A stretch of DNA of 64,000 nt from a virus. Its lineage: Duplodnaviria > Caudoviricetes. Where the stretch lies: positions 32,001 through 96,000 of the IMG/VR virus record IMGVR_UViG_638275558_000001. One strand, written 5' to 3'. The notes beneath the pieces were generated by a model. The model was not told the DNA's origin. It did no database searches and was given only the letters and a program-made list of their open reading frames with translations. Positions within the stretch are counted from its first letter, which is position 1. Each line of letters begins with the position of its first letter. The translations under genes were made by a program, and so were the position numbers. Positions 12,172 through 49,155 of the stretch are shown here, piece by piece.

Positions 12172-12456
12172 ATGATTGTACTTAAAACACCGATACTCAG
12201 AGTTACTTCGTGGTTAGATATTAGAACCGTTTTGTACGTTGAGGGGATTGGATTTGTTACCAGAATCCCCTGGATGTGGGATATTATCTTTGAAATTGTT
12301 TACGTTTATAATAAAATTGAGCGTAATGCTTGTTATTATACCAATTACATCAATTTCACTTTGAATCTTGATTCAGTAGGCGGTAAAGCGTTTGCTGTGT
12401 TGAAAGGGGTCGCACCAGAACAGGTTTTTTCCATTATTATGGTGGTTAGAAGATAG
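12172..12456 (+). CDS. Small-ORF array member (MIVLKT)
   Basis: ATG 12172; 94 aa. Confidence 0.65.
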   Translation: MIVLKTPILRVTSWLDIRTVLYVEGIGFVTRIPWMWDIIFEIVYVYNKIERNACYYTNYINFTLNLDSVGGKAFAVLKGVAPEQVFSIIMVVRR

Positions 12457-12465
12457 AAAGGTGTC

Positions 12466-12576
12466 ATGTTCGTATTGAAAATGCGTGTTGTCGAAAAGAT
12501 TAGAGATCATTATGTACCTTCCGACTATAGATCTTTTATACGTCTTGGTAACTATACTTGGTTCTATCTTTTTTAT
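12466..12576 (+). pseudogene. Last array member (MFVLKM), interrupted by the IS
   Basis: AT-rich array-type N-terminus switches to GC-rich IS sequence near 12577; joining to 13710 gives in-frame ...FYLFY-EYP*. Confidence 0.5.
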
Positions 12577-13709
12577 CATGACACCCATGACATACCGTTG
12601 ACACCGGCGCATAATACCTTCCCACAAACGTTTGCCGCCATGCAGACGCTCACGGTCAAATGCAAGCTGGTCCTCTCTAAGGAGCAGCGAGAAGCACTTG
12701 ACACCACCATGCGAGCGTTTGCCGCCGCGTGCAACGATGCAATCGCCGTCGGTCGAAGACTGAATACCGCGTCGAACATTCGCATCCACCGCGTCTGCTA
12801 CAGCGACCTCAGAGCAAGGCATGGTCTTACAGCCAACCTTGCCGTCCGTGCCATTGCCCGAGCAGCAGGCATTCTCAAAGTCAAGAAGCGCCAGTGCAGT
12901 ACAGTACGCCCGACAAGCATCGACTACGACGCCCGCATCTTCTCCTTCCGAGAAGCCAACAAGCGCCGTGGTCTGGAAGACGCGGCAAGGAGACTACTAC
13001 ATCGGTATCCACATTAACGTAGAGACGCCCCCACCTGAAGATGAGCACGGGTGGATTGGCGTCGACCTTGGAATCGCGAGCATTGCCACGCTGAGCGACG
13101 GCACGGTGTTCAGCGGCGACCAGATAGAGCGGGTCCGTGCTCGGTATGAAAGAACCCGCCGCTCCCTCCAGCGAAAAGGCACGAGGGGCGCAAAGCGCGT
13201 CCTGAAACGGCTCTCGGGAAGGGAGCGGCGCTTCCAGCAGGCGATCAACCACACCATCAGTCGCCGTATCGTAGACCGGGCTATCGCCGAGGGTAAGGGT
13301 GTCCGGCTCGAAGACCTCAGCGGCATTCGCAAAAGTGTGCGCGTTCGAAAATCGCAGCGCAGAAGAATCCACCGCTGGGCGTTCTATGATTTGCGCATTA
13401 AAATCGCGTACAAGTGCGCCCTTGCCGGGGTGCCCTTCGAGCTGATTGATCCCCGATATACGTCTCAGCGCTGTCCGGTCTGCGGGCATACCGAGAGGGC
13501 AAACCGCAAGAGCCAGAGCAAGTTTGTCTGCCGCTCGTGCGGATTGGAAGCGAACGCCGATGTGGTTGGCGCAATTAACATTGCACTCGGGGGCGTTGTC
13601 AACCGTCCCGAAGTAGCGCCCGATGATGTCGAAGCGGTGTTGCATGGTCAGCGCCGAACTGAGACGGAGGGCAGCTACAAGCCCACGACTGAAGTCGTGG
13701 GTAGTTGAT
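12577..13709 (+). mobile_element. IS200/IS605-family (IS1341-type, tnpB-only) element
   Basis: GC-rich island with tnpB; right-end hairpin CCCACGACT-GA-AGTCGTGGG (13682-13701) then TAGTTGAT; candidate TAM TTTAT at 12572-12576; ATGACA-17-CATAAT promoter at 12587-12615. Left boundary approximate. Confidence 0.8.
12640..13708 (+). pseudogene. tnpB: TnpB RNA-guided nuclease, frameshifted by internal deletion
   Basis: N-part MQTLTVKCKL...DARIFSFREA in one frame; C-part (GVDLG, RLEDL, TSQRCPVCG, CRSCG..NADV) in another; junction at AAGCC 12953-12957. Confidence 0.88.
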
Positions 13710-13739
13710 GAATATCCATAGCCATTTATTTAATCAAAA

Positions 13740-15158
13740 ATGCTTCTCGAAAGCCGAAAAGGAGAATTCCTACAACAGGAAATTCTTCGGTTGTATAAAA
13801 CCTATGGGGATCGTCTTCTGGTAAGATTTTCCAGCGCCGAACGCGAAACCTTCAATCCCGACGCCGACTATTTCACAACGCCTATCGGTACTTACGCCTA
13901 TCCTGTCGGTGCTATCTTCCACATTTCGGAAGACGATGTGGTGATCGATCCCGACATGTACGGGGTTTCCGAAAGAAAATATATTTATTTTTTTGTGGCA
14001 AGTAAAGATGCTTCTTGGCTTAACATATCCTCTCAACATCCGGCGTTTGAAATTCCCCTTGTTTTGTACAACCAGTTCAGAAATTATGCCGATCTCTATG
14101 ACGTTTCACTGGATGATGTTTTCCGGAATCGAAACAGTATGGAAAGCTATCTTACCTACTGGTGCTTTGCCATTGCATCCCGTGTTTTCTCCGATCTTAC
14201 AGAGACACTCAAGCAGAACTTGATGGAATTGCTTCGAAAAGATCTTCCCCGTATGCGGGGATATTATCAGGAGCTTTCAAATATTTGCAGGGAATTTGAC
14301 GTCGATGTTTCAAGATTCTATCATGCACGTAACAATCCCGAAGAATGGCTCAATTTGCTGATTGCAGAACTTCTTGACCGGCTCAACAGCGGCTTCAGAC
14401 ACATGAAATCAGCCGGGGATGTAAAGCATAAGTATTTCATGTATCCTCTGATCGTTTTTATAACATTGCTTCACAACAGGTATGCACCTTATCCGAATTC
14501 CATTGAAGCGGCTTATAATATAGGAGCCAAAAAAGACCCTGTTGTTCTGACGGGTTTCCTTCGAAAGGTGGGATATGATGGAATCTGGGATCATGGCACC
14601 GGAGCCATTCACTCCAATGAACCCGCTCAGGTGGTCTGGTGGAAACCCACTGCTGCAAGGCTGGTGAACAAAATGGATAACCCTCTTTATGTTTCGCCTT
14701 CCTCCATAGGATTCGGTTATCTTGCGTTTGCCGATGAAGGGGTTGCACCCTCCAATGAAAAACAGAAAAAATATTTATGGAATCTGATTTTAAGTGGTAA
14801 AATGGATGAGTTTATTGAAATCATGGATATGATCATGTACCGTAAGTATCTTGCAGCGCTTTTCAACGCGTTTTTGAATGAAAGACGGGTGGCTCTCAAA
14901 CACGCTATCGGATTCAAGGCATTCAAGGAATATCTCAAGCAAAATGCAGAGGAAATCAGAAACTTTTTCAGAGTGAGCAGCAATGCGCCGGTGCAGCTTG
15001 TATGGGACCGGTTCAGAAAAGCATTCAGAATTTCTGAATTACTTCGAAACTACGAAGAATTGATTGACCGGCACCCTTATGAGGTGGATGATTTTGCCCA
15101 CAAGCTTCTTGGTAATTTTAACTTTTTGAAAGAACTGATTAAGCCCACCAGACTATAA
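13740..15158 (+). CDS. Putative ADP-ribosyltransferase-fold protein (paralog of 3631..5496)
   Basis: VRFS...FNPDADYFTTPIGTYAYP and GYDGIWDHGTGAIHSNEPAQVVWWKP; TATTTAAT 5 nt before ATG. Confidence 0.6.
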   Translation: MLLESRKGEFLQQEILRLYKTYGDRLLVRFSSAERETFNPDADYFTTPIGTYAYPVGAIFHISEDDVVIDPDMYGVSERKYIYFFVASKDASWLNISSQHPAFEIPLVLYNQFRNYADLYDVSLDDVFRNRNSMESYLTYWCFAIASRVFSDLTETLKQNLMELLRKDLPRMRGYYQELSNICREFDVDVSRFYHARNNPEEWLNLLIAELLDRLNSGFRHMKSAGDVKHKYFMYPLIVFITLLHNRYAPYPNSIEAAYNIGAKKDPVVLTGFLRKVGYDGIWDHGTGAIHSNEPAQVVWWKPTAARLVNKMDNPLYVSPSSIGFGYLAFADEGVAPSNEKQKKYLWNLILSGKMDEFIEIMDMIMYRKYLAALFNAFLNERRVALKHAIGFKAFKEYLKQNAEEIRNFFRVSSNAPVQLVWDRFRKAFRISELLRNYEELIDRHPYEVDDFAHKLLGNFNFLKELIKPTRL

Positions 15159-44978: not shown

Positions 44979-45042
44979 GTTTTTCTTTAAATAAACAGGC
45001 GGTTGTGTTTTTATTCAGAAAAAACTTATTTAAAGAAAAAAG

Positions 45043-45414: not shown

Positions 45415-46503
45415 ATGTTTTACGAACCTTCTGTAAGCTTTTTTGCAGTATATCCTCAGTACAGCACCAGCGCGGCTTTTCTCACAGAATTCAATAAATC
45501 ATCGGCGTGGGTGCTCCACAAACTGGGCTACCCGGTGGTATCGGTGGAATTGACGAAAGATCAGCTTATGTTTCTCTTTCACGAAGCATGGCAAGAATAC
45601 TCTCAGTATATTTCAGAATTTCTGATTCAGGAAAACTATGATAACGTTTTAATAAAAAACATTTTCCAGACGGAAGGGGAAATCTTTGAGAAGTTTCCCA
45701 AACCTAACAGTTCGCTTATCATCGAGCTTTCTGATCGCTATGGAATGTACGACATGAACACCGAATATGTAATCATTCCACTTACCGCTTCTCAATCGGT
45801 TTATGACTTGAAGAATTACATTACCGCATCCGGAAAAATTCACGTTCAGCAGGTGCTTGTCAATAGACCGCGCGTTGGTCTTGGTTCTACGCTGTACGGT
45901 AATGCTTTTGTCTTCAACAACTATTCTCCCTTCACCGTAGGATACGGCGCGGGCTGGAATATCGGTCAGGTGCTCACGCCGCTTTCCTATCTTGCCACCA
46001 CCATGCAGGCTACCGATCTTGCCTACAATATGTATCGCAAGCTCCACTTCTTTGAAATTGTCTCTGGAAGTATGATTCGCATTTCTCCTGTTCCCGATTC
46101 CAACGACTCCCGGCTTACAATCAGATACAAACTGGAACGGGAAGAAGGTGATCTTATTGAAATGTACAATTCAATATTTTATACGAAAACAGGTCTCCTC
46201 GATCTGGAAAAACTAAATGAAAACTCCCTTATTGTGCTTCGGCATATCTTCCTCATGAAGGTGATCGATACGCTTATTTTCATCCGCAAGAAGTACGACA
46301 ACTACGCACTTCCCAATGCGGAACTTACGCTGAACGTCGACAACCTGAAGGAACTCAGGGAATCCACCAAGGAAAAGATCGACAAATACAAAGAGTGGCT
46401 TGACAACATGAAACTTCACGCAAGGCTTCAGCGGAAAGGAGAAGAAGCAGAAGCGCTGGAGCGGGAACTCCAGCGCTATCCTATGGGGTTCCTATTTATG
46501 TAA
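45415..46503 (+). CDS. Neck/head-tail adaptor protein (gp13-like)
   Basis: KLGYPVVSVELTKDQL...EA..EY; RKKY...LP...LTLN..L; P.GF terminus. Confidence 0.8.
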   Translation: MFYEPSVSFFAVYPQYSTSAAFLTEFNKSSAWVLHKLGYPVVSVELTKDQLMFLFHEAWQEYSQYISEFLIQENYDNVLIKNIFQTEGEIFEKFPKPNSSLIIELSDRYGMYDMNTEYVIIPLTASQSVYDLKNYITASGKIHVQQVLVNRPRVGLGSTLYGNAFVFNNYSPFTVGYGAGWNIGQVLTPLSYLATTMQATDLAYNMYRKLHFFEIVSGSMIRISPVPDSNDSRLTIRYKLEREEGDLIEMYNSIFYTKTGLLDLEKLNENSLIVLRHIFLMKVIDTLIFIRKKYDNYALPNAELTLNVDNLKELRESTKEKIDKYKEWLDNMKLHARLQRKGEEAEALERELQRYPMGFLFM

Positions 46504-46507
46504 TCTC

Positions 46508-46663
46508 TCACCTGCAATCACTCAGCGTGCAGGCGCCCATGGGGTGATCTCCTCTACCGGGCTTTTTGAACGGCGGTGGAATCTTATGTCCCGGTTTGTG
46601 GTGTGCAGTAACTTCCTCAACCTTTCCATAGGTTGTGAGCATGGGGGTAATCCACCTTTTCAT
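46508..46663 (-). CDS. Lasso/RRE-type RiPP leader-containing peptide (51 aa)
   Basis: Below cutoff. MKRWITPMLTTYGKVEEVTA-HHKPGHKIPPPFKKPGRGDHPMGACTLSDCR; W-x-x-P-x-L-x-x-x-G-x5-T leader; GGAG SD and TATTTAT upstream. Confidence 0.75.
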   Translation of the reverse strand: MKRWITPMLTTYGKVEEVTAHHKPGHKIPPPFKKPGRGDHPMGACTLSDCR

Positions 46664-46795
46664 GGCTTCTCCGATTTTTTATTGTTGGTTCTTATAGATA
46701 AATAACCCTGTGGCACGCATCGTAAGTGAAAAACCACCCCAACAGCCACCACCGGTTCACATAACGGAAAAATTCTTTGCCTTTTTTAAACTCTT

Positions 46796-47068
46796 TCATG
46801 ATTGTTCTTCTTTTGGAAGATTCAGCTTAATGGTGATATAATCCGAGTCGGGGAATTCTTTTCTTAAATCCTCCAGCGACTCATACACAAAAATCATCCC
46901 GACGGCACCGGTGTTAGCTATCTTAGAAAGTGGATAGACGACTTTCTGAACGCCGTTATTGATGACAACCTGCAGGTCATCCAGAAAGTTAAGCTGCATC
47001 GCGACGTAATACACGCGCTCTTCGTTATTGTTGTCGTTCATGGCACACAGGGTTTTAAGGTTACGCAT
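46796..47068 (-). CDS. Hypothetical protein
   Basis: 90-aa ORF in the polymerase operon. Confidence 0.65.
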   Translation of the reverse strand: MRNLKTLCAMNDNNNEERVYYVAMQLNFLDDLQVVINNGVQKVVYPLSKIANTGAVGMIFVYESLEDLRKEFPDSDYITIKLNLPKEEQS

Positions 47069-47597
47069 GGTAGTCTATTTTTACAATGTAGGTTTTGTCG
47101 TTATATTCTATCATGTGATAATGCGCCTGATAAATATGGGTTCCTTCCAGAAATAGGGGCTCGTTACCTTCAAGGTAGACGAACACCATATCTTCGTCTC
47201 CACCCCCCTGAGAAAGGCGGATAAAGGGAGTGTGCTGACTCTGGTGAGTAATACCGATAACAACATCGGGGTTTTTCTCGATAAAATCGAGAATTTCCCG
47301 CTCCTGTTCAGTGGGTTCAAAATGCTTCCATTGATACACCCGGTAGGGGCGATTCGAAGCGATGTAATAGGGAAGAGAAGCTACATGTCGGTTATAAATA
47401 TCCAGAACAATCTCTTCAATATCAGTATTTTCTTTATTTTTAATTTCTTCCTCGAGTAGCATGTTAAGATCAAGTATCATGTGAGCCAGCGTGCTGACTT
47501 CTGCTTCATGCATTTTAATACCTTTCTTTTCAAGGATACGAACAATGCCTTCAGTGTCGAATTTGAGAATCATGGCGCTAATGGGTTTAGTTTTCAC
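47061..47597 (-). CDS. Hypothetical protein
   Basis: 178-aa ORF overlapping the polymerase stop. Confidence 0.7.
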   Translation of the reverse strand: MKTKPISAMILKFDTEGIVRILEKKGIKMHEAEVSTLAHMILDLNMLLEEEIKNKENTDIEEIVLDIYNRHVASLPYYIASNRPYRVYQWKHFEPTEQEREILDFIEKNPDVVIGITHQSQHTPFIRLSQGGGDEDMVFVYLEGNEPLFLEGTHIYQAHYHMIEYNDKTYIVKIDYHA

Positions 47598-49155
47598 TCT
47601 CTACAAGAAAACGAATAAGATCCTCAACGGTTTTTATCTTTGTAGTATTTTCAACATACCCGAGACTTTTCAGCAGATCAATTGTTTTCTCTGAAATGAT
47701 CTGACAGTATTTGTCTCTATCTATGTATTTTTTAACGATTTCAAGACCCTCCTCATCATCCTCACGTATGCTAAGTGCGTGGATATTGCGGAGCCTGTTG
47801 ATATGCGTTTTCTTTCCCGCTTTCAGAATATCCCACACGCCGCTCCCATGTTCGGGGTTAACTTCTTCCAGAGAAAGCGGGAGATTGGTTCTGGAAGGAT
47901 CCAGCATGGTGCAGTAGAACCAGTAGATCTTGTCTCCCATTTGCGGGGGTTTGCATCCTATAATGGAAGCGAAAAGCGCTCCCTTATAATGAATGGGAAG
48001 TGTATGGTCATACATTTTTATGAATATCTCAGAGATTGGGACATTCTCCTTTTTCATCTTCATAACTTCCTCTACATACTCCACATATCTTTCGGCGCTG
48101 TCAGACGAAGATATTTTCATTTTGTGATAGAGATCTTCAATAGACCAGAAATTCTTTTGAGACACAAAGTTATTGTAGAACGCTATGGTGGCGGAAATGA
48201 CATCGATGTCGGGTTGGCTGATATACTTCAGGTAACCCCTGAAATACTTCTTGACAATTTCAGGCACCGAAGAGTTGATCACTTCGATTCCCTTCATCTC
48301 TTCTTTACCGTCTACAGTAACCGCAAAGTAGCGGTTGATTTCTTTGATAAGAATGGATTTGAACACGAACTCCTGCTTTAACTCCAGCTTGAAATCTTCT
48401 CTTGCATTAAAGTTATTTTCCATATAGTCATTGATAAAAGAGTTGAGATGTTCTTGAAGCTCACCGGCTTCCGCCACCGGATCATCCGTAAAAGCTTTGA
48501 CGAAAATGGAGTCGGTATGCGAATAAATGAAGCGATCGCGAATCTGAGAAATCACGGAGCGAATAGACATGCGCCCGGCGGCGGTTACACTTTCCGCAAT
48601 GGGAAGGCACCCCATGTACACCGAACGGTTTCCGAAGATACCGTACATGGAGTTCATCATAATTTTAAGTGCCCATTGACGGAAATGGTGTTCCATGTTG
48701 CCAGTTTCTTTGAAAAGCTTACGTTCTTCCTTACGTCGGGTGAAAATCTCCCGAATGATAGAAGGAAGCACGCCAACCGGCTCTTTCCTGTAAAACCAGC
48801 AGATACCCGACGGGTTGGGCACCATAATGATATTTCGACTTTTTAAAAATTGCCGGAGTTCCTCAAAGCTGTTGATGACAAAGAGGGGTTCACTCCGGTA
48901 AGAAGGGTTCATCCCTGAATCGAAGATGTAGAGGGGAAACCCGAATTCCGGTTCTTCCTGATCTACCGGAATCACTTTGTTCTCCACCCGCATACACCCG
49001 TAAAACTCCGTTACGAACGTAGCGGGATCGATATTGAATTTGCTGATTACAGAGGGGTACAGCGATGTAAAATCAAGATCGAATACGTTGAAGTAAATAT
49101 CGGGGTTGGTAAGTTCAATGTAAGCACCGCGATAACGATACTTGTTGATGTTCAT
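47587..49155 (-). CDS. Family B DNA polymerase, polymerase domain only
   Basis: Y.GA, DFTSLYPS, KIMMNSMYG, YSHTDS, KGIE; starts just before region II, so no exonuclease domain. Confidence 0.93.
   Translation of the reverse strand: MNINKYRYRGAYIELTNPDIYFNVFDLDFTSLYPSVISKFNIDPATFVTEFYGCMRVENKVIPVDQEEPEFGFPLYIFDSGMNPSYRSEPLFVINSFEELRQFLKSRNIIMVPNPSGICWFYRKEPVGVLPSIIREIFTRRKEERKLFKETGNMEHHFRQWALKIMMNSMYGIFGNRSVYMGCLPIAESVTAAGRMSIRSVISQIRDRFIYSHTDSIFVKAFTDDPVAEAGELQEHLNSFINDYMENNFNAREDFKLELKQEFVFKSILIKEINRYFAVTVDGKEEMKGIEVINSSVPEIVKKYFRGYLKYISQPDIDVISATIAFYNNFVSQKNFWSIEDLYHKMKISSSDSAERYVEYVEEVMKMKKENVPISEIFIKMYDHTLPIHYKGALFASIIGCKPPQMGDKIYWFYCTMLDPSRTNLPLSLEEVNPEHGSGVWDILKAGKKTHINRLRNIHALSIREDDEEGLEIVKKYIDRDKYCQIISEKTIDLLKSLGYVENTTKIKTVEDLIRFLVESEN

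Follow-up and report, generated by a model that had tools for sequence, protein, structure and literature searches.

A phage homologue of Rhodothermus lasso-peptide precursors in a genome without lasso maturation enzymes

The virus record analysed here comprises 129,908 bases (CheckV completeness 100%), and the window, a stretch of 64,000 nucleotides, corresponds to bases 32001–96000 of that record; unless stated otherwise, positions are those of the window. On the minus strand, at 46508..46663 with the stop codon included, lies an open reading frame (ORF) of 51 amino acids that starts with ATG at 46663–46661 and ends with TGA at 46510–46508. The sequence confirms its coordinates and translation as they were originally predicted. 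On one side of the ORF is a convergent plus-strand gene (45415–46503) with a weak match to the head–tail adaptor phrog_211, and on the other are several consecutive minus-strand genes, among them one for a DNA polymerase (47587–49155). A 53-amino-acid antisense ORF overlaps the 51-amino-acid ORF. The GC content of the ORF is 53%; that of the phage is 42%, and that of the host precursor genes described below is 54–62%. Among viral contigs, the neck protein and the DNA polymerase have no close phage relatives, and only two loci, 23–25% identical, were found; a megablast search with the region found no match in the phage collection.

The encoded peptide falls into three parts, all on the minus strand. 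The leader (residues 1–20; 46604..46663), which contains W4, P7, L9, G13, K14 and T19, is matched by a profile of host leaders. The His/Lys/Pro-rich spacer (residues 21–31; 46571..46603) is defined by alignment with host peptides. The core-like last 20 residues, F32 to R51 (46511..46570), are matched by a profile of the corresponding host residues, contain K33, G36 and D39, and end in S48, D49, C50 and R51.

A Shine–Dalgarno-like GGAG (46669..46672, minus strand) lies 5 nt upstream of the ATG, as had been predicted. Farther upstream, 35 nt from the ATG, is TTATTTA (46699..46705, minus strand), a partial match to TTATTTAA, the enriched upstream word of the phage, which is usually found 7–12 nt ahead of the start codon. 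Of 153 upstream regions of the phage, 35 contain TATTTAA (2.7 expected). Followed by an A-rich run, TTATTTAA precedes many starts, often in divergent pairs (for example, at 44994 (−), 45026 (+) and 50611 (+)), a pattern suggesting that it is probably the main promoter or initiation signal of the phage. The extra A is present at 38 of the 54 TTATTTA sites and is replaced by T in the copy upstream of the ORF; the 16 sites that lack it are, as read from their contexts, mostly away from start codons. The TATTTAT originally described as a late-type motif does exist, as TTATTTA (46705–46699) and then T, but its reading as a promoter is weak, and we rejected an own late promoter for the ORF because the motif lacks the extra A and its distance of 35 nt is atypical.

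Beyond the stop codon, by 31 nt, a scan followed by folding identified a terminator-like hairpin (46452..46477, minus strand) within the 3′-terminal part of the convergent gene on the plus strand. It has an 11-bp stem with 7 G–C pairs, followed by a U/C-rich run, and a folding energy of −26.3 kcal/mol (z −2.93; 1 of 200 shuffles was as good). We infer that the ORF is transcribed by read-through from the polymerase-containing block. The sole RNA-library contig examined (X19, depth 4) spans 46207–46557 before continuing into unlike sequence; it is a variant, could stem from carried-over DNA and gives no sign that the ORF is transcribed.

The ORF belongs, at the margin, to a curated lasso-peptide family. 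NCBIfam model NF033534 (‘rhodolasso’, lasso peptide) matches residues 3–51 with 32.4 bits (E 5.5e-8), above its curated cut-off of 30, so the comparison with lasso models that had been proposed as a check turned out positive. In a six-frame search with the same model the ORF scores 30.3 bits, just over the cut-off. Because the cut-off is passed, the ORF can be filed as a marginal member of NF033534, although its 32 bits are far under the 50–114 bits of cellular members. Another model, NF033528 (lasso_cyano), matches only the leader (residues 3–20) with 20.1 bits, under its cut-off of 33.

Because the NCBIfam seed might include the phage protein, we built a host-only profile from 9 distinct sequences representing 10 host genes, with five weak sub-threshold NF033534 hits excluded, and scored it against the 3,589 stop-to-stop segments of at least 20 amino acids in six frames of the whole phage genome. 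The ORF ranks at the top of all 3,589 segments (44.0 bits, E 2.5e-12); the runner-up reaches 7.6 bits (E 0.57). Split profiles recover it from either end: the host leader-only profile matches with 26.1 bits (E 8.5e-7) and the profile of the last 20 host residues with 24.2 bits (E 4.3e-6), ungapped over 19 residues, and the next-best phage segments have E values of at least 0.18. On this profile evidence, the phage ORF is a diverged homologue of the host lasso-precursor family, in its leader as well as in its last 20 residues. The original description of an orphan precursor with a lasso-type leader is right in that the phage has no maturase for it, but understates the relationship, which is to the host’s own precursor family.

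Single-sequence searches are far less revealing. Pfam and PHROGs searches with the peptide gave no match, and a word-based protein search with the single peptide as query returned one close variant only. An exhaustive phmmer search of 1.84 billion representatives recovered two genuine relatives, P0001 and P0002, and no cellular homologue at E 1e-3; two further matches, P0003 and P0004, were set aside as spurious on inspection, being long repeat-rich proteins. Given this lack of a cellular homologue in the single-sequence phmmer search, profiles were required to reveal the host link. Peptide scans of genome contigs, of viral contigs (with the single peptide and with alignment A4) and of metagenome contigs found nothing. 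The nearest clusters in the ESM Atlas are unnamed peptides of 52–58 amino acids with Gemmatimonadota or Rhodothermota labels (scores 0.88–0.89), which we treat as leads only.

The host lineage was reached through a different gene of the phage. A TnpB/IS605-type element (12300–13900; GC 0.59) contains a TnpB ORF (12821–13708, +) and an overlapping ORF (12466–13017, +), and the best genomic relative of the TnpB gene, at 77% protein identity, is in a metagenome-assembled genome named ‘uncultured Rhodothermaceae bacterium’ (L002, genome G001). The DNA of this region is 92–99% identical to genome G030 and 93–99% identical to G003, both of which carry the lasso cluster; it has no match in G048, G075 or G098. 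In the host copies about 86 additional bases separate the two matching pieces, and in the phage the reading frame is broken in two, so that the phage element looks damaged.

We searched 201 genomes sampled from the order of G001, Rhodothermales, with NF033534 and found matches at E ≤ 0.01 in 11 of them and above the cut-off in 6. Five of these carriers (G003, G030, G048, G075 and G098) score 97–114 bits, often with tandem pairs, and G087 scores 50 bits. The carriers make up six of the seven genomes of one GTDB family (the seventh being G062); none of the other 194 sampled genomes of the order passed the cut-off. Exact look-up of the peptides returns the NCBI name ‘lasso peptide [Rhodothermus marinus]’; members labelled ‘[Rhodothermus profundi]’ and unnamed metagenomic ones came from a profile search.

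We read the loci of five of the six carriers; the sixth, G087, has its precursor on a 1.9-kb contig. The lasso genes of G003, G030, G048, G075 and G098 are split over two distant loci, which in G003 are about 0.9 Mb apart. The first locus holds a kinase gene, a cyclase gene, one or two precursor genes, an exporter gene and a PqqD gene. In G003 the precursor genes lie between an ABC exporter and a cyclase that matches NF033535 (‘lasso peptide isopeptide bond-forming cyclase’) with 847 bits. In the same genome an HprK-related kinase is encoded upstream of the precursor locus, and just downstream is a PqqD protein that matches NF033536 (‘lasso peptide biosynthesis PqqD family chaperone’) with 80.4 bits (cut-off 80). 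The second locus encodes a B2 peptidase (NF033537, 73.4 bits; cut-off 33) along with one further HprK-related kinase and one further PqqD protein. PF13471 and PF05402 were found in all five host genomes searched (G003, G030, G048, G075 and G098). Within about 8 kb of the precursor locus, G048 also encodes a glycosyltransferase, oxidoreductases and a nucleotidyltransferase of PF14907. The host precursor genes have AGGTG-like sites at a distance similar to that of the phage GGAG. Judged by gene content, the Rhodothermus host lineage has a complete RRE-bearing lasso pathway with homologous precursors, which is what the proposed check of host genomes for lasso clusters had sought.

The phage itself encodes none of these enzymes. 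At E ≤ 10, no match to PF13471, PF05402 or PF00733 turned up anywhere in the 129,908-base genome, with control genomes positive, and a host HprK-like kinase used as query found no match in the phage. The predicted absence of a cyclase, a peptidase and an RRE from the window thus extends to the entire genome. It had also been predicted that the window holds no radical SAM gene, and the sole radical SAM ORF of the phage does lie outside it, about 18 kb from the precursor-like ORF at approximately 97.0–97.4 kb of the genome (L116:1036–1875, minus strand; 279 amino acids; PF04055, 38.6 bits). The rest of the genome, in which maturases had been proposed to be sought, therefore holds no lasso maturase, but does hold this one ORF, with weak matches to peptide-maturase, MoaA and viperin models that are far under the cut-offs of those models. 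We rejected it as a maturase because the matches are weak and generic and radical SAM proteins are not part of lasso chemistry.

The motif of lasso-peptide leaders is (Y/W)xxPxLxxxGxxxxxT, and the phage ORF contains it as W4-x-x-P7-x-L9-x-x-x-G13-x-x-x-x-x-T19. In an alignment of 14 peptides, 2 of phage type and 12 cellular, the five residues of this pattern that had been recognized originally (W4, P7, L9, G13 and T19) are invariant in 14 of 14, as are M1, K33, G36, D39, S48 and C50; K14, T46 and L47 are nearly invariant. The cellular peptides are 45–53% identical to the phage peptide in this alignment and 38–51% identical in smaller ones. KPG occurs twice in the phage peptide (K23–G25 and K34–G36) and, in the reference genome, C45 and C50 form a CxxxxC pair, both as originally noted, but the pair is not a conserved feature because C45 is His in two of the six phage-type variants.

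The most divergent part of the phage peptide, compared with the host peptides, is the spacer. Between T19 and the ring-like motif the phage has 12 residues, A20 to P31, among which His, Lys and Pro abound and Cys is absent; the hosts have 5–11 residues, in which an invariant Cys followed by Trp or Tyr is present in 12 of 12 cellular members and is absent from both aligned phage-type sequences. The residue seven before D39 is Phe (F32) in the phage and Gly in most host peptides.

The rule that places Thr at position −2 of the cleavage site would start the phage core at H21, where a small residue is expected, with K27, I28 and P29 at positions 7–9 and no Asp or Glu among them. Characterized lasso rings comprise 7–9 residues, according to PMC13352647, and the lack of an acid 7–9 residues past the canonical Thr(−2) site makes ring formation uncertain. 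The core was originally called non-canonical on these grounds, and the His start and the missing acid are indeed present, but both are consequences of applying the Thr(−2) rule, which the host family breaks as well: no family member, the 12 cellular ones included, has Asp or Glu at positions 7–9 after the Thr(−2)-x site. In the weaker lasso-like peptides of other Rhodothermales, 4 of 5 have an acid at these positions. In cellular members of the Rhodothermus family the invariant Asp (D39 in the phage) instead follows a Gly by 7 or 8 residues, and this Gly is itself 5–11 residues past the Thr(−2)-x site; Phe32 as a ring start would require cleavage 11 residues beyond that site. These positions suggest that the family may have either a cleavage site elsewhere or a different ring chemistry.

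The resemblance to host genes is confined to the protein. Blastn of the phage gene against host DNA gave E values of at least 0.39, with no match at the precursor genes. In the last 20 codons, 8–10 of 20 third positions agree with the three host genes that align end-on; two other host genes compared align out of register, with 16–19 of 60 nucleotides in agreement. The lack of DNA similarity and the few agreeing third positions indicate that the phage copy is old, and residues retained despite such divergence speak for selection on the protein.

Related phages retain the frame, and conservation among them had been proposed as a check on the prediction. The phage-type cluster consists of six distinct sequences on 19 contigs, with one form on 14 contigs, the longest of 100,869 bases, and the frame is intact in all six variants. 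The variants show W4R (P0009), G36S, G38E with A44T, T46M, or an insertion of two residues together with C45H; none alters F32, K33, D39 or any of the last five residues. The most diverged variant, P0002 (107 amino acids, on a 948-base contig), joins about 67 N-terminal residues of a homologue of the 178-amino-acid ORF at 47061–47597 (−) to residues 12–51 of the peptide. It lacks residues 1–11 and differs at K34, R37, G38 and H40, and it keeps K33, G36 and D39. Either a genuine deletion or faulty assembly may have produced this fusion.

DNA near-identical to part of 46200–47700 is present in 20 of the 24 sequencing runs listed; these 20 come from 13 studies, and 16 of them have at least half of the sampled words; their labels include soil, compost, manure, landfill and hot springs. 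We aligned contigs for four runs (X1, X7, X14 and X19). Contigs of X1 and X7 cover the ORF with 2 differences each; the one they share, 46589 T>C, falls in the third position of codon G25 and leaves the amino acid unchanged. At 46505 X1 is missing 11 letters, and at 46725–46729 it carries an insertion of 342 letters; the X7 contigs also break at the latter site, and X7 has a further joint from 46630 to 47034. In X14 (a 17.9-kb contig) the flanks are kept, and 46500–46696, which includes the gene and its ribosome-binding site, is swapped for 418 other letters. Because this close relative has the whole gene replaced, the gene is dispensable, and the replacement together with the insertions and breaks in relatives indicates an accessory cassette in a variable spot.

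The original suggestion that the phage may borrow host RiPP machinery, or decoy it, agrees with the match to a lasso model, with the complete pathway of the host lineage, with the recurrence of the gene in related phages and with the lack of a phage maturase. Our preferred reading, held tentatively and at somewhat less than an even chance, is that the ORF, which the profiles show to be a long-diverged phage copy of the host precursor (A) gene, is used as an alternative substrate of the host lasso line. The ORF would be transcribed as the last gene of the leftward DNA polymerase block and translated from its own GGAG site, and the conserved leader (W4, P7, L9, G13, K14 and T19) would dock on the PqqD-type RRE chaperone of the host. 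The peptide could then enter the line of host B2 peptidase, lasso cyclase, tailoring enzymes and ABC exporter. The product would be a phage-specified lasso-type peptide with the K33-x-x-G36-x-x-D39 ring motif of the family, a 12-residue tail and a different N-terminal part; the phage would provide only the substrate and the host all of the enzymes. Several observations sit poorly with this: Phe replaces the usual Gly seven before D39, the conserved first Cys of the host spacer is missing, one variant carries W4R and P0002 is without residues 1–11, the gene can be replaced, and its NF033534 score is far below the cellular range. Some of the same features would suit a decoy that binds the RRE, the peptidase or the cyclase of the host as a dead-end or poor substrate, titrates the machinery and stops host lasso-peptide output during infection. 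In favour of this, every hallmark of the leader is conserved and the phage lacks lasso enzymes, and normal processing would be expected to suffer from Phe at the putative ring-start position, from the basic, Pro-rich spacer of 11 residues and from the missing first Cys. A pure RRE decoy, however, needs the leader only, yet K33, G36, D39 and the C-terminal tail are also conserved, and this conservation of the core favours a substrate; moreover, the literature searched yields nothing on a host lasso peptide that harms phage. We consider a decoy unlikely, while giving it an appreciable share of the probability; with both readings taken together, the phage peptide probably either enters or blocks the host lasso machinery.

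Readings in which the peptide has no part in lasso chemistry are less probable. The gene might be a relic, acquired from a host long ago and now a drifting, dispensable passenger without a role; its variable surroundings (the replacement in X14 and the insertions or breaks at 46725–46729 in X1 and X7), the damaged host IS element elsewhere in the phage, and the existence of the W4R variant and the fusion form fit such a history. We nonetheless find it improbable, as all six variants, found on 19 contigs, have an intact frame, the family-invariant residues are all kept even though synonymous sites are saturated relative to host genes, and the gene is flanked by a ribosome-binding site of its own and a terminator-like hairpin. 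To a small phage protein that works independently of the lasso pathway, such as a basic Pro-rich peptide acting on a host target and resembling precursors only by ancestry, we assign a similarly small likelihood: the His/Lys/Pro-rich middle is unlike that of any host member and P0002 retains residues 12–51 without the start of the leader, but the invariance of the RRE-binding and cleavage hallmarks of the leader would be left unexplained. That the ORF arose by chance in an intergenic gap has almost no probability. It is short and overlapped by the antisense ORF, but chance is refuted by the host-only profile (E 2.5e-12, unique among 3,589 segments), by both half-profiles and by the curated cut-off that the peptide passes.

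The use of the phage peptide as a host-line substrate can be carried further, to a proposal that we hold a little more doubtfully: that a lytic phage reprograms a natural-product pathway of its host through a substitute precursor alone, with the B1, B2, C, kinase and exporter proteins of the host making a new lasso-type molecule that serves the phage. If so, the product might be directed at uninfected neighbours, at rival phages or at a target in the host, and its ring would start at Phe32, or possibly Asp39 would be joined by the side chain of the invariant Lys33. No earlier RiPP gene of a virus would be ‘substrate-only’ in this way, and the case would expose an unusual processing rule of the host family, in which the ring motif lies 5–11 residues beyond the canonical Thr(−2) site.

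The closest known relatives of the phage peptide are the Rhodothermus lasso precursors themselves (NF033534), which it resembles in length (47–52 amino acids), leader hallmarks, K-x-x-G-x-x-D motif and sequence (38–53% identity); it shares with the main host type a 12-residue tail after the Asp and identical last five residues. It differs from them in that the phage genome lacks B1, B2, C and D genes, in its longer, basic, Pro-rich spacer without the conserved Cys, and in the Phe that replaces Gly seven before the Asp. Complete bacteriocin and RiPP clusters known from prophages, such as that of sublancin on SPbeta, bring their own modification, export and immunity genes. Both cases involve a phage-carried RiPP precursor gene, but here there is the precursor only, which would depend on host enzymes. 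Cyanophage psbA likewise derives from the host, is maintained by selection in a lytic phage and functions together with host proteins; here, by contrast, the copy is the substrate of a secondary-metabolite pathway and not an enzyme or a structural subunit. Fusilassin (fuscanodin), a lasso peptide with Trp as its ring start, offers a precedent for a bulky aromatic residue at ring position 1, as Phe32 would be, although the family is unrelated.

Kinases and nucleotidyltransferases are lasso tailoring enzymes that act on the C-terminal Ser, according to PMC7533575. The host cluster resembles the paeninodin and pseudomycoidin clusters described there in its pair of HprK-related kinases and, in the case of G048, in a nearby nucleotidyltransferase of PF14907; it differs in that their modified Ser is C-terminal, whereas S48 is fourth from the end. 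By analogy, we infer that the invariant S48 is a candidate tailoring site.

What is new here is a precursor-only copy in a lytic-type phage, the matching enzymes of which are owned by the host lineage. The literature searched, which includes PMC11118758, contains no account of a phage-encoded gene for a RiPP or lasso precursor only, of ‘rhodolasso’, or of lasso peptides in Rhodothermus; genome-mining supplements, which fall outside that search, may list the host cluster. The Rhodothermus lasso family is itself marked as unusual by these results, its conserved ring-like motif being offset from the canonical cleavage site. The pathways that make RiPPs are guided by the leader and tolerant of many cores, and for this reason may be easily hijacked by a small precursor gene. 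Both the phage and its host are culturable thermophiles, which makes the idea directly testable. If it is true, viruses would exploit or block bacterial secondary metabolism in a new way, through a pathway that is present in six of the seven genomes of the host family.
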